In this document: positions 755 through 23,940 of the stretch, one piece after another
How positions within the stretch are numbered: the first letter of the stretch is position 1
Layout of the letters: each line of letters opens with the position of its first letter
Notes under the pieces: generated by a model
Seen by the model: the letters and a program-made list of their open reading frames with translations, nothing else
Database searches by the model: none
Told to the model about the DNA's origin: nothing
Position numbers and translations under genes: made by a program
NCBI GenBank assembly: GCA_030606485.1
Contig: JAUWGH010000001.1
Span: 210,001-242,000 of the forward strand
DNA from: Promethearchaeota archaeon
Lineage (GTDB): Archaea; Asgardarchaeota; Lokiarchaeia; Sigyniarchaeales; SOKP01
Length of the DNA: 32,000 nucleotides
Direction of reading: 5' to 3'

Positions 755-1993
755 ATGTTTGACTATTTAATTAGTGATGATTATAAAAAATTAAGGGATA
801 AAGTTCGGGCTTTTGTCAGAAATGAAGTCCCGCATTCATTGCTAAAACAAATGGATAGAGATGAGGTAATATATCCCAAAGAATATGTTCAAAATTTAGC
901 TAAACACGGTCTTTTAGGCTTAAGATTCGATAAAAAATATGGCGGTCAAGGATTAAATTGGGAGGCTGAAGTCTTAGCACTTGAGGAAATTGGGGTTTTG
1001 GGAGGATCACTCGGATGTTTATTTGCCTTAGTTTCGATTTGCGGTGAAGCAATTCATATTTTTGGTACCGAAGAGCAAAAAATGAAATATCTAAAGCCAA
1101 CTTTAGAAGGTAAGATTTTCAACGCGGAAGCTCTGACCGAACCCCGAGGAGGCAGCGATTTTTTCGGCGCTACATGCACAGCAGAAAAAAAAGGAGATAA
1201 ATATATTTTAAATGGAGAAAAAAGATTTGTTGTAGGAGCTGAAGGGGCAGATTACTTTTTAGTATATGCGAAAACAAATCCCGAAAAACCACCTCGTGAA
1301 TCTTTAAGTCTTTTTATTGTTGATCGAACAGAAGGTGTTAAAGCTAAATATCTATATGGTTTATTGGGAACAAGAGGGGGAGGTGCAGGAAGATTAGTGT
1401 TCAAGGATGTTGAAGTTCCAGAAGAAAATTTAATTCTCGCTGAAGGTGCAGGAGGCAAAATCTTTTATCAAATGATGATCCCAGAACGATTAACAAGCGC
1501 TGCAGCAGCATTGGGTACTGCAAGAGCCTGTCTTCGGATTGCAACCAAATACAGCACAAAAAGAAAAGCCTTTGGTAAAGTTATTAAAAGATTTGAAGCA
1601 GTAAGTTTTAATATCGCAGAATCTATTACCCTATTAGATGCTGCTAGAGCCTTAACATTAAACACTGCAAGAGCAATTGATAATAACGCACCTCCGAGTG
1701 TTCAAAGAAGATTAGTCTCAGAATCCAAAAAATTTGCAACAGAATCTTGTTGGAAAATAGTTAATAATGCTATGCAAGTAATGGGAGGTATAGGTTACAC
1801 CACAGTCTATCCAATCGAACGACTACTTAGGGATACCCGACTTTGCATGATATGGACAGGAACCAGCGAGATAATGTCCTTAATTATCCAGCATGAGTAT
1901 TATAATGAAGTTCTATCGGAAAAATGGCTAGGACGAGACGTTGAACAAGACGCATTAGATTCCGATGCTGTAGAAGAAAAACATTATGGCTAA
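755..1993 (+). CDS. Acyl-CoA dehydrogenase family protein
   Basis: [36 protein letters not shown] and IERLLRD motifs of ACAD enzymes. Confidence 0.92.
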
Positions 1994-2048
1994 ATAAATA
2001 AAAAAGAGATTCTAATCAGGAGTAAAATATTAGTAAAAACAAAAAAGA

Positions 2049-2597
2049 TTACCTAATTTCTCCGAATTGTTTTAAAATTGCAATAACCAGCGATTTAAAT
2101 GCTTCTTTGACTTTATCTCCCGTTTTTGCACTAGTTTCAATAAATTTAGTCGCGTTAATCTTTTTTGCTAATTCTCTGCCTTTATCTGTTGAAACTAATC
2201 GTGATTCCTCTAAATCCACTTTATTCCCGATGAGAATGTAGGAAGTATCTTCTCTAACGTTACCTTTAAAATCCTTCAGCCAAGAATCTGTAATATTCTG
2301 AAAAGTTTCCGGTCTAGTTGTGTCATAAACCATAAGAGCACCCCGGCACCCTTGAAAATACAGAGGACGAACCTGTAAGTATTTTTCCTGACCTGCAATG
2401 TCCCAAAAAACTAGTCGACAATGAATTTTTTTAGCGTCCTGCTCAATATCAATATCACTTCTAAATAAATCGCAACCCAATGTGGGTTTATACTCTTTTT
2501 CGAATTGTTTTTCAATATATTGTTTAATTAATGAAGTCTTACCTACTGCAAAGTCTCCACAGATGCATATCTTAAAAATGAAATCTCTTTCGCTCAA
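2049..2597 (-). CDS. Rab-like small GTPase (TTG start)
   Basis: G1 GDFAVGKTS, switch I YKPTLG, G3 WDIAGQE, G4 GNKVD, G5 ETSAK; no C-terminal Cys prenylation motif. Confidence 0.92.
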   Translation of the reverse strand: MSERDFIFKICICGDFAVGKTSLIKQYIEKQFEKEYKPTLGCDLFRSDIDIEQDAKKIHCRLVFWDIAGQEKYLQVRPLYFQGCRGALMVYDTTRPETFQNITDSWLKDFKGNVREDTSYILIGNKVDLEESRLVSTDKGRELAKKINATKFIETSAKTGDKVKEAFKSLVIAILKQFGEIR

Positions 2598-2654
2598 AAT
2601 TTTTTCTTTACCTAATCTTTATTTTTTCTTTATAATATTAAAATTTAATCTTTA

Positions 2655-2670
2655 ATTGAAATATTTCAAT
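2655..2670. promoter_or_regulatory. Perfect 16-bp palindrome ATTGAAATATTTCAAT between the two Rab-like genes; possible transcription-factor site
   Basis: Exact reverse-complement symmetry, about 60-75 bp upstream of the 2597 start. AT-rich, so chance occurrence is possible. Confidence 0.3.
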
Positions 2671-2721
2671 AAAAAATTGAAGAATTTCCTAGGAAATAAG
2701 TTGATTATAATGTTAAAAAAA

Positions 2722-3279
2722 TTACTCTATTTTCCCAAGATTCTTTAATATTTGAATAGATAAACTTTTAAAGGCATTAGTTACATTTTCTCCGGTTTTT
2801 GCACTAGTTTCAATAAATTCAGTGGCATTAATCTCCTCAGCTAATTCTATTCCCTCCTCTTTTAAAACCGATTGCGAATCCTTTAAATCTATTTTATTTC
2901 CTATAAGAACAAAAGAAACTCTACTCCCCGTATTAATTAATAATTCATTTAACCATATATTCGTTATGTCTTCGAATGTCGTAGGTCTGGTGCAATCATA
3001 AACTAAAAAAGCACCAACACAACCCTTGAAATATAAAGAACGTATTAACTCAAATCTACTTTGCCCAGCTATATCCCATATTACTAGTGTACATAGAAAT
3101 TGCTTCCCCCCCTCAACTTCAATTCCTACATTCTGTCGAAGTAAATTTGCACCAAGTGTAGGACGATAATCTTCCTTGAATCTCGCCTCAACAAAACGAT
3201 TTATTAATGAAGTTTTTCCAACAGCTGCATCTCCTATAATTACTATTTTGAATATATAATCCCCTTCGCTCATAACCAA
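2722..3279 (-). CDS. Rab-like small GTPase, tandem paralog (true start probably the ATG at 3273)
   Basis: GDAAVGKTS, YRPTLG, WDIAGQS, GNKID, ETSAK; purine-rich AAGAGGA ribosome-binding site upstream. Confidence 0.92.
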   Translation of the reverse strand: MVMSEGDYIFKIVIIGDAAVGKTSLINRFVEARFKEDYRPTLGANLLRQNVGIEVEGGKQFLCTLVIWDIAGQSRFELIRSLYFKGCVGAFLVYDCTRPTTFEDITNIWLNELLINTGSRVSFVLIGNKIDLKDSQSVLKEEGIELAEEINATEFIETSAKTGENVTNAFKSLSIQILKNLGKIE

Positions 3280-16798: not shown

Positions 16799-16958
16799 GT
16801 ATTCTTAAAATCGCTATTTCCAATTAAAATTTGTGATCTAAACAAATAAAAGAAATGAAGTTTTGGAACATAGATTGATAAAAATTCTTTTAGATTGATT
16901 TTATTCTGAATATTTAGCAAAATAAATTAATTTTTTTATACAGCATAAGCTTTTTTAT

Positions 16959-17852
16959 ATGAATTTCAATTTAAATAAAATTGATGAGAAAATGGCTAAA
17001 AAATTAAAATATGGTTTATATACTCCAAATTATGGTACTATTTTTGGCTACGCAAGAAAATTAGCAGAATTATCAAAGGAAGTAGAAAATGCTGGGTGGG
17101 ATGGATACTTTATATGGGATCATATTTTGGTTGATAGAAATTTTCCTTATCCAATTGTTGATCCTTGGGTTGCTCTGGCAGCAATGGCAATCTCAACCGA
17201 ACGTATTTATATTGGAACAACTATTACTCCCTTACCACGTCGTCGCCCATGGAAGCTCGCTCGCGAAACGGTTGCAATAGATCACCTATCTAAAGGGAGA
17301 ATGATTTTAAGCGTAGGTTTGGGAGAACCACCAGAGGTAGAGTATAAGGCTTTCGGTGAAGAATCTGATTTAAAAGTGCGCGCTAAGAAACTGGAAGAGG
17401 GAATTGATATCTTAATAGGTCTCTGGAGTGGTAAACCCTTTAGTTATAATGGAGAATATTATGATATTGATAATGTGAGATTCTTACCAAAACCAGTTCA
17501 AAAACCAAGAATTCCAATATGGGGGGCTGGACAATGGCCAAAAAAGGGACCTTTTATTCGGGCTGCTCGTAAATTGGATGGCATCTTTCCATTAAAAGAA
17601 AATTTTCGAGGGAAATTAACCCTAGATGATTTAGGAGAGATAATAAATTTCATAAAAAAACATCGTAAGGTAGAAACTCCTTTTGATGTTGTATTTATGG
17701 GTAAAACGACTGGAAAAAGTCCAAAATCGACAAATGAAAGATTTAAACAATATGCAGAAGTTGGTGTGACTTGGTGGTTAGAATATTTCGGAGCGACTGC
17801 GAAATTAGAAAAAATACGGGAACGGATAAACTTAGGACCAGGAGATGTTTAG
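16959..17852 (+). CDS. LLM-class flavin/F420-dependent oxidoreductase (start may be the ATG at 16992)
   Basis: GWDGYFIWDH, DPWVALAAMA, LARETVAIDHLSKGR, PKPVQKPRIPIWGAG. Confidence 0.88.
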   Translation: MNFNLNKIDEKMAKKLKYGLYTPNYGTIFGYARKLAELSKEVENAGWDGYFIWDHILVDRNFPYPIVDPWVALAAMAISTERIYIGTTITPLPRRRPWKLARETVAIDHLSKGRMILSVGLGEPPEVEYKAFGEESDLKVRAKKLEEGIDILIGLWSGKPFSYNGEYYDIDNVRFLPKPVQKPRIPIWGAGQWPKKGPFIRAARKLDGIFPLKENFRGKLTLDDLGEIINFIKKHRKVETPFDVVFMGKTTGKSPKSTNERFKQYAEVGVTWWLEYFGATAKLEKIRERINLGPGDV

Positions 17853-17961
17853 CGGGTTTTAGATGTGATTAGAAAAATATTGGGCGGCTTATTGAATATA
17901 AAATTAATCTTTATTAATCCAATTCACATATTCTTATATATTCAAGAAAGGTGTTAATAAA

Positions 17962-18819
17962 TTGCAAAGTGAAAAAATAGATCCTACTTATATTGGTCAC
18001 AACGATGGCTGTGCGTTTATAATTCCTAAAAAACTCTTTCAGATGAAATTAAAAGGAGTTATTCCACCAGAAGATCTAAAACTATTTAGTAAATATATGA
18101 GAAAGACGATTATAGGATTTGATAAAGCACGTAAAACAAAATATGGAAATAAAAACAAAACTAAAACAGCAACAACGCCAGAATTTTGGGAAAGATTTGA
18201 AAGTAAAGCTAAAGAATTAGGTGCAGACCTTATTGGCTATATACCAGTTAATGAAAATTACATCTTTAAAAACCTCACCATCTATGGAAAAAATGCCATT
18301 GTTCTTTGTATGGAGCTAGATTGGGAAAAAATCAAGACTGCCCCGAGCTATTTTTGTGGAATGGAAGCCTTTAGAGTCTATAAAGAATTAGGGGATGTAG
18401 TTATCGAATTAACCAATTACTTACAAGAACAAGGCTATAAGGCTGAAGCACACCATCCTTTTGGTGGAAAATTATTATTTCCTTATCACGCTGTGGCTGC
18501 AAATATTGGAATAATAGGAAAACTTGGATTGCTTATTACCCCTGAATTTGGTCCAAGACAACGTATTGGAATAATAACGACTGACGCTGATATTCCATTG
18601 AATAGAAAAAAAAGAGACTTTAGTGAATTGGAAGAGTTCTGTAGTAATTGTGGGGCTTGTGTTAAGAGTTGTAAAGCTGCATTGGAAGAACCTGTTGAAA
18701 AAATCAAGGGTTCTGGAGTAATATCGCGCATAGATCGCTCAGAATGTATAGAAAGATTGATAGATGATAATTACTGCTCAATCTGTCTAAAAATTTGTTC
18801 TTTAGGGCACCCAAAATAA
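17962..18819 (+). CDS. QueG/reductive-dehalogenase-superfamily 4Fe-4S (cobalamin-binding-type) protein
   Basis: AKELGADLIG, HAVAANIGIIGKLGLLITPEFGPRQR, CSNCGACVKSC and C-x9-CSICLKIC; TTG start; no Tat signal. Confidence 0.75.
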   Translation: MQSEKIDPTYIGHNDGCAFIIPKKLFQMKLKGVIPPEDLKLFSKYMRKTIIGFDKARKTKYGNKNKTKTATTPEFWERFESKAKELGADLIGYIPVNENYIFKNLTIYGKNAIVLCMELDWEKIKTAPSYFCGMEAFRVYKELGDVVIELTNYLQEQGYKAEAHHPFGGKLLFPYHAVAANIGIIGKLGLLITPEFGPRQRIGIITTDADIPLNRKKRDFSELEEFCSNCGACVKSCKAALEEPVEKIKGSGVISRIDRSECIERLIDDNYCSICLKICSLGHPK

Positions 18820-19083
18820 TTAATAATATTTTAATTTTTACCCTAATTCTAAAATTAAAAATCTTAAAAATAAAAGGAAAACTTTTAAGAAAGATTTTGG
18901 AAAATCTAATATATAAAAAGTTTAACTTTGATTGTGATAAAAATCTGAATTATATAGAATATTTGGGTTAAATTATTTCCTTTAATTATCTTATTATTAC
19001 TTTTCTTTTAGTTTTATATGATTGTGATGATTCTTTCGATGCAATTAATAATTGATCAAATACAAAAGTTTATATATAAGAAT

Positions 19084-19127
19084 GTCCATTATAAGAGTGG
19101 ACGTCCAAGAATATATTAAACGTCCAA
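19084..19127. promoter_or_regulatory. Cluster of GTCCA/TGGAC elements in the promoter of the pseudo-GTPase gene
   Basis: GTCCA-N9-TGGAC (19084-19102), perfect palindrome TGGACGTCCA (19098-19107), ACGTCCAA repeated at 19101 and 19120, just downstream of a TTTATATA box. Confidence 0.4.
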
Positions 19128-19161
19128 AAAAAAATAAATAAAAAAAAGAGATGGATTTGAA

Positions 19162-20142
19162 TTGAAAAATATAAACACTGAAGGGAAGAAAATAAAAAAT
19201 GGAAAATTAACAAATATACAGTTAGAAAATTTGGAAGTTTTTCTTAAAAAATGTAATTATAGTAAAGAAGAATTGGTGACAGAAAGTGATGTTAGATTAT
19301 CTAGAACCATTCTTGTTAAAGAAGATTGGATTAGGAGCTCTAAAAAGAAAATGAAACATTTAATTCAAGTTCTTATTCAAAATTTTGACCTGAATTGGTT
19401 AATTTCAAAAATCGCATTTGATCTTCATATAAAATATGATAAAACAATCAGTCAAGGACAAGCAGAAGCCATTATACGACGAGTTTTAGGTATAAAACTC
19501 TCAAGCACGGGTAGAAGTCAATTGCATGAATTACGCAAGAAAATCCAAAAATATAAAAGATTTTTAACATATTTTGAAGAATGGGGCAAGCAAGAAGACT
19601 ATACATTAAAAGTTATTATTATGGGCTTAAAAGACGAACAAAAAAATAAATTATTCCTAATACCATCTGAAGTAGAGGGGTCTAATATAACCATTGGAGT
19701 GGAATTCCATAGAAAAATGATAGAAATTTATGATAAAATAGTAGAATTACAGATTTGGGATGTTACAGGGAATAAGAAATTCTCACTCCTAAGACCAAAA
19801 TACTATTTAGGTGCTAAAGGAGCAATTATAACTTATGATAAAGGTGATCGTGAATCATTTGAATTAGCCAAAAAATTTTATTCTGAATTAAAGAAGGTAA
19901 CTAATCTAAAGTTCAAATTAAAAGAAAAAAAAGGAGTTTATGTTGATATTCCTATAACTCTCATCAGCTTTGGCGAATCTAAACTAGTGACTTCAGAAGA
20001 AGGGCAATCTTTAGCAAAAGAATTAGGAGCATATTATTATGAAATGTCAGAGATTGATGAACAAATCTTTGGAGAAGCACTTTCTTATCTTTCCCTTCAA
20101 GTTATTACGAGATGCCAGAAAATGATGGGGAAAAGATACTAA
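19162..20142 (+). CDS. Rab-like pseudo-GTPase with ~145-aa N-terminal extension
   Basis: TIGVEF, LQIWDVTG, RPKYYLGAKGAIITYD and GQSLAKELGAYYYEMS are Rab-like; G1 is GLKDEQKN and G4 NKxD is absent. Confidence 0.78.
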   Translation: MKNINTEGKKIKNGKLTNIQLENLEVFLKKCNYSKEELVTESDVRLSRTILVKEDWIRSSKKKMKHLIQVLIQNFDLNWLISKIAFDLHIKYDKTISQGQAEAIIRRVLGIKLSSTGRSQLHELRKKIQKYKRFLTYFEEWGKQEDYTLKVIIMGLKDEQKNKLFLIPSEVEGSNITIGVEFHRKMIEIYDKIVELQIWDVTGNKKFSLLRPKYYLGAKGAIITYDKGDRESFELAKKFYSELKKVTNLKFKLKEKKGVYVDIPITLISFGESKLVTSEEGQSLAKELGAYYYEMSEIDEQIFGEALSYLSLQVITRCQKMMGKRY

Positions 20143-20185
20143 TTTGAAAATTTAAAAATTTTTTTTTAAATTAGAAGGATTTATA

Positions 20186-20710
20186 ATGAGATTATTAATT
20201 TTAAGTTATTTCGATAAAATAATTGGTCCAAAAATTTTTTTAAAGGTACCAGATAATTATAATAGCAATTATCTGCAATATATCCCTAATTTAATAGATT
20301 ATTATGATGAAGGTTATTTCATTCATGAATTTGTTATATTAAAAACCGCAAATCTTATTTTTCAAATATCTAGTCCATTAGCAAGAGGATATATGGAGAT
20401 TGCTATGATATCAATAGTACTTCTTAATGAAGAGATAAATCCTAATTTTTTTCAGGAATCATTAAAATATTTTGTTTTTGAGATAAAAAGAATAAATGAT
20501 ATATATCAGGGATTTTACATTGAAAAAGAAGAAATCAAAGGTACTCGTAAAGCGTATATTAAAATGAAAGATCTGATGAATTTAATTTATAATTCACTTC
20601 CTAAAAAAATCTTATTCAGAAGATTTAATATTATACCATTTCAAATTTCTTATCAAATTTGCAAAATAGGAAAGAGTAGAAGAAATCTGAAAAACATTAG
20701 AGAATTTTAA
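20186..20710 (+). CDS. uDENN/longin-domain protein resembling folliculin/SMCR8/NPRL2
   Basis: N-terminal ILSYFDKIIGPKIFLKVP and FQISSPLARGY resemble the F-x3/4-GP and LARGF motifs of eukaryotic longin GAP subunits (recognised by eye). Confidence 0.6.
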   Translation: MRLLILSYFDKIIGPKIFLKVPDNYNSNYLQYIPNLIDYYDEGYFIHEFVILKTANLIFQISSPLARGYMEIAMISIVLLNEEINPNFFQESLKYFVFEIKRINDIYQGFYIEKEEIKGTRKAYIKMKDLMNLIYNSLPKKILFRRFNIIPFQISYQICKIGKSRRNLKNIREF

Positions 20711-20759
20711 AAAAAATAAAAAACGATTTTATGAAAAGGAAAAAATGAGACATAATAAT

Positions 20760-21320
20760 TCATCTATAACATATTAATCCAAATCGATATATCCAACGTT
20801 TTGGAGGCCATTCTAACCTAAAATTTAAGGATTTTACCGTTTTATCCACATCAATCCCTACCGCCTCCATCGAATATCTCATCTCATCCGGATAACGACA
20901 TGGTTCTCTACTATCATATGTACAAGCACCATCTCGTCGATCATTACAAATTTTACAATGTCCTCCTACCAAAATTATTTTATCTTGGAAAGGCTCTTGA
21001 CTCGTTTCTAAAAATTGATTTATTTCTATATCAAGCCCTTTTCGTGTGATTTCTTTGAAAAATACTTGGTTTCTTATTCTCTCTTCACTCCAATTTGGGT
21101 GTTTTGATCGAGTTTCTTTTATATAGGATTTTAAATCAAATTGAAAGTATATTAGAAAAAATTTTTGAAAGCATGAGATTTCTTCTTCTAAATAGGGCGC
21201 CACTGGGGGACAAGACCAATTATGATCATAATTTGGGCATTTAAAGTTTGGATTAACACAATATGTTTGAACCTTTGGATCGAAAACAATATCATTAAAC
21301 TTAATTTCAATAAAAGGCAT
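20760..21320 (-). CDS. DUF2284 predicted metal-binding protein
   Basis: CPNYDHNWSCPP, GGHCKIC, CRYPDEMRYSMEAVGIDV. Confidence 0.8.
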   Translation of the reverse strand: MPFIEIKFNDIVFDPKVQTYCVNPNFKCPNYDHNWSCPPVAPYLEEEISCFQKFFLIYFQFDLKSYIKETRSKHPNWSEERIRNQVFFKEITRKGLDIEINQFLETSQEPFQDKIILVGGHCKICNDRRDGACTYDSREPCRYPDEMRYSMEAVGIDVDKTVKSLNFRLEWPPKRWIYRFGLICYR

Positions 21321-21413
21321 AAAAATATCTTTAAAAGTGTTTAAAATAATATAATTTCTTCTATTATTTTTTTTTAATGTAAATTTGATTTTAAAGAAAA
21401 AAAGAGAATTATG

Positions 21414-22649
21414 TTAAAGATGTTCATTCTTAACAGGTGTTATGAAGGCAATAATTATTATCGTTATCCCTAAAAATAAGAACACCGCATATAAGTTCCA
21501 TGTTGCCATAAACCCAATAATTGGATTCATTATTGCTAGCGAAATCCCAAAGATCATACTTATTGTACTTAAAACAGTTGCTCTATTTTCTGGTTCAATT
21601 TGTTTGTTGATTCCATCTACAAAAATTAGCCATCTTGGAAAGCCAAACCCCGTAACGATTAATATCAAGCCAATACTTATAGGAATGATATTCGTAAAAC
21701 TCATAAATATAAATGCTAATCCTACTAACACCGTGCTAAACATTAAATACCTCTTACGCTTCTTAAACCATTTCATAAATTTTGGTATAAAATTCAAAAA
21801 CACCATCTCTGTAAATGTCATCATGGACAATATAAAGCCGAAAAAAATTATTGGAACGTTGAGCACATCAAGATACAATTGAGAAGTCCAAAACATGAAA
21901 TAAATTAACACACCAACTGAAATTTTATCGATTATTAAGAAGATTAATACTTTACTATTTTTTATTTGTATGAAACCTTGTTTTAGGAAATGTAGATATT
22001 TCTTATGCTCAGTTTTATGATCGTTAGGCTCCTTAAAAGATAGGGAAATTAATGCTGCACAAAATGATGGAAAGAAACAAAAAAACATTGTAAATTGTAG
22101 TGAAATATATTCTGCAATAATGGAACCAATTGGACCGCTAATCATTATTCCAATTAATAAAAAACTATCTACACGTCCTATAATTTTCGTATATCTTTCT
22201 TCTTGATTTGTTTTCTTTAATGTATCATATAAAAAAGCTTCACCTGCACCGGATAATAATGCTTCTCCCAATGCGAAAAAAGTTTCTCCAATTGCAAAAA
22301 TAAATATGCTTGGCATACTAGAATAAATCAATGTCGCTAGTGCAATAGCAAAAGCTGCAATCGTTATGACGTATTTCCGACCTAAATAATCTGCTATTGC
22401 ACCACTTGGAACTTCAAATAAAAAGTTCATAAATAAAAAATAACTTTGCAAAATTGTGATTTCGATAAATGTGATTTGACCCCATTCCATAAAAAAGGGA
22501 ACTATAACACCTATAGAAGTATGGAAAAACAAAAAAAAACTAAATAAATAAAATTTCGGCACATTTCTACTGTAATCTATCTCTATTGTTTTTTGTTCCG
22601 TTGCAAGCTGGAACTCTCCTGTTCCATTAGTTCTTTCTAAATCAGTCAC
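21414..22649 (-). CDS. MFS transporter, tandem paralog 1 (GTG start)
   Basis: FEVPSGAIADYLGRK motif A, about 12 TM segments, NRATVLS; AGGTG ribosome-binding site. Confidence 0.9.
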   Translation of the reverse strand: MTDLERTNGTGEFQLATEQKTIEIDYSRNVPKFYLFSFFLFFHTSIGVIVPFFMEWGQITFIEITILQSYFLFMNFLFEVPSGAIADYLGRKYVITIAAFAIALATLIYSSMPSIFIFAIGETFFALGEALLSGAGEAFLYDTLKKTNQEERYTKIIGRVDSFLLIGIMISGPIGSIIAEYISLQFTMFFCFFPSFCAALISLSFKEPNDHKTEHKKYLHFLKQGFIQIKNSKVLIFLIIDKISVGVLIYFMFWTSQLYLDVLNVPIIFFGFILSMMTFTEMVFLNFIPKFMKWFKKRKRYLMFSTVLVGLAFIFMSFTNIIPISIGLILIVTGFGFPRWLIFVDGINKQIEPENRATVLSTISMIFGISLAIMNPIIGFMATWNLYAVFLFLGITIIIIAFITPVKNEHL

Positions 22650-22689
22650 TTTTACAACACCTATTTCTTATTTCGGAATGAAATCAACG

Positions 22690-23940
22690 TCAAAGATGGT
22701 CATTCTTAACAGGTGTTATAAAGGCAATTATTATTATCGTTACTCCTAAAAATAAGAACACCGCATATAAGTTCCAAGTTGCCATTAACCCTATAAATGG
22801 GTTCATTATAGCTTGTAAAACTCCACCGAGCATACTAATTGCGCTTAAAACTGTTGCCCTGTTCTCTGATTCAATTTGTTTATTGATTCCTTCGGCAAAG
22901 ATTATTCGTCGCGAAAATCCGAAACCTAAAATGATCATAATTAAAATAATACCTACTGGGACAATTTGCGTAAAGCTCATAAATATAAATGCTGCACCGG
23001 TCATCAATGTACTAAACATTAAGTATCTCTTGCCTTTTTTAAACCATTTCATAAACTTTGGTACAAGATTAAGACATACCATCTCTGAAAATGTCAGCAA
23101 GACCAATATGAAACCGAAATATATTATCGGAACATTAAGCGCACTCAAGTATAACTGATAAGTCCAAATAATGAAGAATGCTAATACATTAACTGAAATC
23201 ATGTCAAACGCTAATATTTGTAATACTTTATTATGTCTTAAATGCGTAAAACCTTCTTTCAATATCTTTAAGTATCTCTTTGATTTTTTTACTAAATCAG
23301 AATTGGGTTCCTTGAAAGTAAATGATACAATCGCAGCCATCATCATTGGGAAAAAACAAATTGTCATAGTCAATTGCAACGAAATATATTCTGCAATAAT
23401 CGAACCAATTGGACCACTGATCATTATTCCTAATATCGCCATACTATTTGCCCGACCCCAGATCTTAGAAAAACTTTCCTGTTTGTTCATTTTCTTCAAT
23501 GTATCATATATAAAAGCTTCATTTGCGCCTGAAGATAAAGCTGCACCTAATGCCCAAAGGGTTTCTCCAATTACAAAAATGAATATATTTGGCATACTTG
23601 AATAAACCAATGTTGCCAGTGCGGTCATAAGAGCCGATATTATCATGGCAAGCTTACGCCCTAAAAAATCTGCAATCGCACCACTTGGAACTTCAAACAC
23701 AAATATCATAAACATGAAATAACTCTGTAAAAACATAATTTCGACAAATGTTATTTGACCCCAATCTAGAAAAAAGGGAACTAACACTCCACTAACTGTG
23801 TGCATACTAATGAAAAGATTAAATAAGTAAAACTTCAACACGTTCCTACTGTAATCTATCTCATTCGCTTTCCGTTCCACTGCAGGTTGGATATATTCCT
23901 TTCCATTTTTCCTTTCTGAATTGTTCATTTTTTTTAACAC
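22690..23940 (-). CDS. MFS transporter, tandem paralog 2
   Basis: FEVPSGAIADFLGRK; collinear with the neighbouring paralog; same AGGTG ribosome-binding site. Confidence 0.9.
   Translation of the reverse strand: MLKKMNNSERKNGKEYIQPAVERKANEIDYSRNVLKFYLFNLFISMHTVSGVLVPFFLDWGQITFVEIMFLQSYFMFMIFVFEVPSGAIADFLGRKLAMIISALMTALATLVYSSMPNIFIFVIGETLWALGAALSSGANEAFIYDTLKKMNKQESFSKIWGRANSMAILGIMISGPIGSIIAEYISLQLTMTICFFPMMMAAIVSFTFKEPNSDLVKKSKRYLKILKEGFTHLRHNKVLQILAFDMISVNVLAFFIIWTYQLYLSALNVPIIYFGFILVLLTFSEMVCLNLVPKFMKWFKKGKRYLMFSTLMTGAAFIFMSFTQIVPVGIILIMIILGFGFSRRIIFAEGINKQIESENRATVLSAISMLGGVLQAIMNPFIGLMATWNLYAVFLFLGVTIIIIAFITPVKNDHL

Follow-up and report, generated by a model that had tools for sequence, protein, structure and literature searches.

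Folliculin (FLCN), GATOR1 and C9orf72-SMCR8 are longin-type enzymes that switch off Rag and Arf GTPases in the lysosomal nutrient signalling of eukaryotes. In the passages of the literature drawn on here, the catalytic arginine fingers are R164 in FLCN and R147 in SMCR8, and NPRL2 has a conserved equivalent arginine. A Gly-Pro (GP) motif, situated at the end of the β1-β2 loop or at the start of β2, beside the arginine finger, is described in the cited passages as common to FLCN, NPRL2, SMCR8 and C9orf72, FNIP2, NPRL3, the adaptins, TRAPP and the DENND proteins being given there without it (Traffic 2025, PMC12290439). Asgard longins of the FLCN/SMCR8 type or similar to NPRL2 have been published (Liu et al., 2020, 10.1101/2020.10.19.343400; Traffic 2025, PMC12290439), among them, in the passages cited, longin-Rag fusions and NPRL2-like longins fused to two-component domains (Liu et al., 2020). 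Longin-GTPase and longin-GTPase-roadblock proteins are likewise described from Ca. Prometheoarchaeum syntrophicum MK-D1, whose GTPase genes are, according to the same passages, generally not in operons with longin genes (Tran et al., 2024, PMC10933270). The gene considered here lies at 20186..20710 on the forward (+) strand of a 32,000-nucleotide stretch of a Promethearchaeota archaeon genome (assembly GCA_030606485.1, contig JAUWGH010000001.1, positions 210,001 to 242,000), hereafter the window, and its product is very probably a longin of the FLCN/NPRL2 type. The source genome comprises 3.75 Mb in 13 contigs, and the window is AT-rich (25-37% G+C). Both the names that relatives bear in their source records and the ESM Atlas point to a Promethearchaeota (Asgard) organism of Lokiarchaeia type. 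The gene and its parts, in window coordinates, are the following.

20186..20710 (stop codon included), + strand: gene for a 174-aa protein, very probably a FLCN/NPRL2-type longin (open reading frame (ORF) list, homologues, AlphaFold2 model)
20186..20620, + strand: longin domain, residues 1-145, β-β-α-β-β-β-α-α-α
20225..20230, + strand: GP motif G14-P15 (GGT CCA), opening strand β2 (sequence, model)
20351..20353, + strand: N56 (AAT) in strand β4, the family's most conserved residue
20384..20386, + strand: R67 (AGA), candidate arginine finger in the β4-β5 connection, followed by G68
20621..20707, + strand: C-terminal tail, residues 146-174, KIGKS with G162-K163-S164 at 20669-20677

The ORF can be taken as a genuine gene and not a chance reading frame, because it has 271 homologues, because the same protein, identical or 99% identical, is called on at least eight metagenome contigs, and because a Shine-Dalgarno-like word (GAAGGA, 20174-20179) stands 6 nt ahead of its ATG. 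The N-terminus MRLLILSYFDKIIGPKIFLKVP, the SPLARGY motif and the Arg67 codon at 20384-20386 are all present in it, as an earlier note on the letters of this DNA had stated. A Pfam scan of the ORF returned nothing at E<=1. At 20708-20725 the homopolymer length at the 3' end of the gene varies between assemblies, the C-terminus reading ...REF-stop in the window and ...REFKKK or ...RELKKK (177 aa) in the metagenome versions.

The assignment to the FLCN/NPRL2 longins is carried by structure. Built with a 100-sequence alignment, the AlphaFold2 model has a predicted local distance difference test score (pLDDT) of 88 and a predicted template modelling score of 0.80; it replaces a single-sequence model (all-helical, pLDDT 37), which was discarded. 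The model consists of β1 (2-10), β2 (14-21), α1 (28-39), β3 (43-49), β4 (52-62), β5 (70-80), α2 (86-101), a short helix (106-111) and α3 (120-137), followed by low-confidence residues 145-174 (pLDDT 45-62), and thereby shows the β2-α1-β3-α2-α3 sandwich of ~120-140 residues that marks the longin superfamily. Foldseek against the PDB places NPRL2/Npr2 (GATOR1/SEAC), FLCN-FNIP2, Lst4 and a Lokiarchaeal roadblock-longin protein at the top. FLCN and NPRL2 are the closest folds, 2-3 Z units above generic longins. The structure is nearer to the FLCN/NPRL2/SMCR8 longins than to those of SNAREs, adaptins, TRAPP or the DENN guanine nucleotide exchange factors (GEFs). The only eukaryotic structural neighbours in the ESM Atlas are the NPR2, Folliculin, SMCR8 and Avl9 clusters, with template modelling scores of 0.62-0.66, and a Heimdall cluster, partly labelled Folliculin, is also among the neighbours there. 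Both the longin fold and its likeness to FLCN, NPRL2 and SMCR8, which the earlier note had proposed from motifs, are borne out by these comparisons.

The two motif elements of the GAP-type (GTPase-activating protein) longins occupy the places published for the eukaryotic proteins and for Asgard homologues, since G14-P15 open β2 (14-21) in the model, and R67 lies between β4 (52-62) and β5 (70-80). The FLCN stretch around R164, SLARGF, would match PLARGY here; the equivalent NPRL2 arginine is presumably R78. The Pfam Folliculin hidden Markov model (HMM; PF11704) gives sub-threshold local matches to three paralogues in the same genome, L041, L003 and L042, and if the matched stretches are ungapped, L041 R105, L003 R70 and L042 R82 all fall at HMM position 61; these three arginines share the alignment column of R67. 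It is likely, on this alignment, that R67 is the residue-level equivalent of FLCN R164.

How strictly these residues are kept can be judged from the family at large. A phmmer search of 1.84 billion cluster representatives returned 271 matches to the protein at E<=1e-3 and 111 at E<=1e-10, the homology spanning ~145 residues, nearly always N-terminal, in proteins of 58 to 2317 residues. L6, F9, G14, P15, P22, F44, F45, N56, F59, R67, G68 and S76 are near-invariant (alignment, n=100). In the family HMM alignment R67 is retained in 147/152 sequences, G68 in 143/152, N56 in 150/152 and the GP motif in 127/140, and N56 is invariant in two further family alignments as well; the retained arginine of the earlier note is thus a family-wide feature, beside a near-invariant GP motif. 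The nearest relatives are 49-55% identical. A word-indexed homologue search recovered the protein itself only and its profile version 12 unnamed proteins, and a related-locus search of genome contigs with the single longin protein found none. A profile search recovers the family from 53 of the 151 genomes sampled for the phylum; the window's own taxonomic family has 25 other sampled genomes, each with 2-8 copies. The FLCN/NPRL2/SMCR8 class of longins is expanded in Asgard archaea of the Promethearchaeota/Lokiarchaeia type. The source genome holds four more copies (L002, 289 aa; L003, 410 aa; L004, 356 aa; and one of ~935 aa), together with two more distant longins with the GP and ARG motifs (L041, 480 aa, with a fused G domain; L042, 212 aa). 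The former of these (L041 1225-2667, +; G000:C1:208112-209554) combines a GP/EARG longin with a G domain (GLDRSGKS) and a C-terminal region of ~150 aa, and the latter (L042 1171-1809, -) is a stand-alone GP/SARG longin 53 bp downstream of a same-strand PAS-histidine-kinase gene (1863-3101, -).

Numerous architectures are found among the relatives. A G domain directly follows the longin domain in 61 of 151, 46 of these being longin-G only and the remainder adding PAS, GAF and histidine-kinase domains. An intact P-loop, GxxxxGK[ST], is present in 46 of the 61 fused G domains, which Pfam assigns to the Arf family (E 1e-24 to 1e-36). Longin-only proteins make up 54/151, and longin-PAS, longin-PAS-histidine kinase and longin-GAF-histidine kinase proteins without a G domain ~35/151. 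The commonest fusion partner is nevertheless the Arf-like G domain, also in kinase proteins (longin-G-PAS-GAF-histidine kinase), and an intact Rab-like gene stands directly downstream of the paralogue L002 in 3/3 genomes of the genus. Fusions and gene neighbourhoods together appear to tie the longin domain functionally to small GTPases. The arginine is kept in family members with an intact cis G domain as well as in those where that domain is dead or lost, which fits an action in trans. In source records the relatives are named "hypothetical", "PAS domain S-box protein" or "ADP-ribosylation factor-like protein", with the longin part unannotated. In four large Lokiarchaeal proteins (P0017, 2317 aa; P0040, 1772 aa; P0021, 1119 aa; P0020, 833 aa), named only "PAS domain S-box protein", a FLCN-type longin and an intact Arf-like G domain share one chain with several PAS and GAF domains and with the ATPase domain of a histidine kinase.

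The window copy breaks off shortly after the start of such a G domain. Its tail NIIPFQISYQICKIGKSRRNLKNIREF (residues 146-174) aligns with β1, the P-loop and the start of α1 of the fused G domains, for example that of P0010 (RILIFGLKNSGKSTIIKCL, P-loop GLKNSGKS), and then stops. In the longin-domain tree the ORF groups with P0004 and P0006 (Shimodaira-Hasegawa-like approximate likelihood ratio test, SH-aLRT, 96), both of which carry full-length but degenerate Arf-like domains, DFSKGDKS/DKAN and DFFADGES/NKLG. The tail is, by this alignment, a vestige of β1, P-loop and α1 from a lost Arf-like G domain; because it aligns with the start of the G domain and because the tree places the ORF with degenerate fusions, the gene can be described as a truncated longin-GTPase fusion in which only a P-loop stub is left. 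A separate clade of longin-plus-stub proteins of 175-203 aa shows the same order, longin, β1, P-loop (often xLSxxGKx), α1 and stop. This set comprises P0007-P0012, P0015, P0022, P0030, P0045 and P0067, and at least two of its genes are complete ORFs inside contigs (L007 1456-2025, -; L009 1453-2022, -).

The longin gene does not stand alone; it belongs to a two-gene segment with the gene immediately upstream.

18820..20762, strand not given: two-gene cassette, 1.94 kb, missing from the same-genus genome G040 (blastn of the window against G040)
19162..20142, + strand: Ras-like pseudo-GTPase, 326 aa, with a conserved 145-aa N-terminal extension (Pfam Ras, motif loss)
20143..20185, + strand: 43-bp spacer between the pseudo-GTPase and longin ORFs, with a T9 run at 20159-20167

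In G040 the flanks, 95% identical over 17906-18819 and 20763-21367, are just 22 bp apart (blastn), and neither the longin nor the pseudo-GTPase protein is found in the same-genus genomes G040 and G129. The cassette is nonetheless present on at least eight contigs at 99-100% protein identity, and its DNA occurs at a word share >=0.57 in 19 DNA runs from 10 studies of cold-seep, marine-sediment and vent samples. Its borders show no terminal repeats and no mobile-element signs. The longin/pseudo-GTPase pairing is confined to one species-level population. In a close strain (L048 4574-5104; 97% identical, with a pseudo-GTPase 91% identical) longin codon 108 is changed from CAG to TAG, the sequence after it being unchanged; the Q108 stop reflects a recent nonsense allele or else a mistake in assembly. 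Between the two strains the ratio of nonsynonymous to synonymous substitution rates (dN/dS) is 0.68 for the longin, on 8 changes only and hence on too few substitutions to be meaningful, and 0.22 for the pseudo-GTPase. Three metatranscriptome runs overlap the longin ORF only through 30 bases at its 3' terminus (20703-20732, contig depth 2), which speaks neither for nor against expression, and a relative's contig with 8 differences in 258 bases covers 19329-19586 within the pseudo-GTPase gene. The neighbourhood is a variable region, since a second indel relative to G040 lies at 16812-17905, where ~145 bp in G040 replace ~1.1 kb. A luciferase-like monooxygenase gene (16959-17852) sits inside this indel. 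On the other side, 21414-23940 holds two paralogous MFS-type transporter genes in tandem (411 and 416 aa); the population's metagenome contigs have one MFS gene only (412 aa), so that the duplication is recent or variable.

That the neighbour is a pseudo-GTPase, 43 bp upstream on the same strand, had been noted before; its ORF indeed ends 43 bp before the longin ATG, and the loss of motifs is found throughout its relatives. The Pfam Ras match is limited to residues 174-307. An alignment with three intact Rab-like proteins from the same genome shows a degenerate P-loop (GLKDEQKN against G-DxxVGKT), WDVTGN with N where the catalytic Q would stand, and neither NKxD nor SAK. GK[ST], NKxD and SAK are missing in 57/57 relatives examined, whose source labels are Hod-, Hermod-, Odin-, Thor- and Lokiarchaeota, and the protein belongs to a conserved Asgard-wide family (P0152-P0208). 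The P-loop pattern of this family is G[LF]xxxxxxx[LIVY], with GLxxEQxxKL as its most frequent form, and the N-terminal 145 aa are strongly conserved: …KTISQGQAEA.IRRVLG.KLSST.RSQL.ELRKKIQ.YKRFLTYFEEWG. Some members are ~520 aa long with extra Arf or MMR_HSR1 matches, and fusion to a CDC48 N-terminal domain is seen in two. A 252-aa Rab-like protein two genes from the longin-pseudo-G fusion P0004 (L056 3643-4401, -) has intact G1 and G4 motifs and a G3 that reads WDFFDE, lacking Gly as well as Gln.

A conserved longin/pseudo-GTPase operon was considered and rejected, three other pseudo-GTPase family members having no longin within 3.5 kb and the nearest relatives of the longin, P0004 and P0006, having no pseudo-GTPase neighbour. 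Complex prediction for the longin with the full pseudo-GTPase scored 0.00, which is no answer and speaks neither for nor against binding; co-inheritance is the only evidence that the two work together. The earlier picture of a minimal GAP module encoded with a dead GTPase partner finds no support, as the pairing is limited to one species-level population and the ORF itself is a truncated fusion. The Rab genes at 2049-3279, offered at the same time as candidate substrates, are 17 kb away and represent only 2 of the 57 Ras-family matches in the genome, so that nothing specific speaks for them.

With regard to function, the protein may, by analogy, be an Asgard GAP-type longin, that is, a GTPase-docking platform serving as an arginine-finger GAP in trans, a reading that we judge as apt to be right as wrong. 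The longin platform, probably dimeric, would dock a small GTPase, and R67, beside the GP motif, would enter the nucleotide pocket and speed GTP hydrolysis. The action would be in trans, as no more than a P-loop stub remains of the protein's own G domain. As to origin, a longin-Arf-like fusion would have seen its G domain first degenerate and then be cut off, and the longin would since have been inherited with the pseudo-GTPase gene as an accessory cassette. That the arginine stays invariant in members with an intact, a dead or no cis G domain argues for a conserved surface that acts in trans or has a role beyond cis hydrolysis.

Several observations weigh against this reading. The Pfam Folliculin (PF11704) and NPR2 (PF06218) models miss the longin ORF. 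Across the whole genome, PF11704 matches other paralogues only, at best 20.5 bits (L041) against a cut-off of 23.3, and PF06218 has zero matches; among the 100 relatives, PF11704 reaches E 0.003 in two. A profile search of PDB sequences gave only a non-significant match to NPRL2 (E 1.2) in the GP region, with NPRL2 residues 10-36 set ungapped against profile positions 4-30. The core profile, a β3-β5 profile, a single segment, L041 and L003 found no significant match to a solved FLCN or NPRL2 among PDB sequences. The equivalence of R67 with FLCN R164 proposed in the earlier note thus has indirect support only, from the place of R67 between β4 and β5 and from the paralogue arginines at PF11704 position 61. 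Furthermore, eukaryotic GAP longins are heterodimers with a second longin-DENN subunit, and none is evident here: among the window genes no FNIP-, NPRL3- or C9orf72-like gene was seen in the ORF list or by Pfam. About 30% of relatives combine the longin with sensor-kinase modules and have no G domain, and therefore a role untied from GTP hydrolysis is possible. Finally, the copy is truncated, absent from congeners and interrupted by the Q108 stop in a 97%-identical strain, which may point to decay, and its dN/dS of 0.68 on 8 changes exceeds the 0.22 of the neighbour gene.

The last of these observations, joined with the P-loop stub at the C-terminus, the degenerate G domains of the nearest relatives and the absence of the cassette from both same-genus genomes, would be expected of a decaying remnant of a longin-GTPase fusion that is carried in an accessory cassette and has no useful role left. 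Such decay seems rather unlikely, however, for a protein in which 12/12 near-invariant family residues are intact, though identity to its nearest relatives is as low as 49-55%. At least eight contigs carry the frame intact and the DNA stretch recurs in the 19 runs from 10 studies; stand-alone and longin-plus-stub proteins of 175-203 aa recur elsewhere as complete ORFs, and the dN/dS rests on too few substitutions.

It is unlikely, too, that the protein is a non-catalytic GTPase-binding platform or an exchange factor, possibly for the adjacent pseudo-GTPase, with the Arg-Gly pair needed for binding or folding. The GP motif and the arginine are reported, in the passages cited, for GAP-type longins only and are absent there from GEF-type ones, even though the same passages hold that GEF or platform roles are the more frequent ones for longin and DENN domains (PMC12290439). 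FLCN and NPRL2 are moreover the closest folds, 2-3 Z units over generic longins, and other members of the pseudo-GTPase family do not adjoin longins. What such a platform would explain is the persistence of the arginine beside dead G domains and the co-inheritance with a pseudo-GTPase probably unable to hydrolyse GTP. It would also have parallels in TRAPP, Mon1-Ccz1, DENN and MglB-type platforms, and further structural neighbours of the model, DENND1, TRAPP, the Fuzzy-Inturned/RSG1 complex and an adaptin sigma subunit bound to the AAGAB pseudoGTPase, belong in the same context. More specifically, and very doubtfully, longin and pseudo-GTPase could form a nucleotide-independent "frozen" regulator-GTPase pair, a scaffold rather than an enzyme and its substrate, comparable by analogy to AAGAB/sigma-adaptin or to the inactive lysosomal folliculin complex; if true, this pair would be a prokaryotic pseudo-GTPase/longin scaffold.

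The weakest alternative, an input or adaptor domain that detects a ligand or partner to control PAS/histidine-kinase outputs, with the stand-alone form regulating such kinases as a free protein, unrelated to GTPases, is highly improbable, since an Arf-like G domain directly after the longin is the commonest partner even in kinase proteins and no kinase gene lies near the longin ORF in the window, notwithstanding the ~35/151 kinase-type relatives without a G domain, the position of paralogue L042 just downstream of a PAS-histidine kinase, and the many NPRL2-like longin/two-component fusions mentioned in the cited passages (Liu et al., 2020, 10.1101/2020.10.19.343400).

Asgard longins in which both the GP motif and the arginine persist are the foremost candidates for prokaryotic ancestors of folliculin, GATOR1 and C9orf72-SMCR8, and the suggestion in the earlier note of a possible precursor is, going by the passages cited, already published for this class. 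A 174-residue longin without a DENN domain or a partner subunit makes a simple construct for GAP biochemistry; as a truncated, strain-specific copy it is a weaker test case than intact longin-Arf-like fusions such as P0010. The window copy adds no principle beyond published ones. Its small additions, unmentioned in the passages cited, are the near-absolute conservation of N56 and the persistence of the arginine across intact, dead and lost cis G domains.

Compared with human FLCN and yeast Lst7, the catalytic subunits of the GAPs for RagC/D and Gtr2, the protein shares ~11% identity and has neither a DENN domain nor an FNIP-like partner gene; Pfam Folliculin misses it, and the fused G domains of its family are Arf-like, not Rag-like. 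With respect to NPRL2 of GATOR1 and yeast Npr2, GAPs for RagA/B and Gtr1, it lacks the NPRL2 C-terminal domain and the NPRL3 or DEPDC5 partners. The longin-GTPase of MK-D1, from the same organism group, has the parent architecture of its family, a longin followed by an Arf/Rag-like G domain; in the window copy the G domain is cut after the P-loop, and a Ras-like pseudo-GTPase gene lies 43 bp upstream. The published Asgard longins, so far as the cited passages go, agree with it in phylum, fold and the GP and arginine elements, and occur both stand-alone and as GTPase or two-component fusions, whereas the window copy is a truncated fusion with a P-loop stub in a strain-level cassette with a pseudo-GTPase. 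By those same passages the class is already published for Asgard archaea, and the window ORF is a truncated, accessory member of it.
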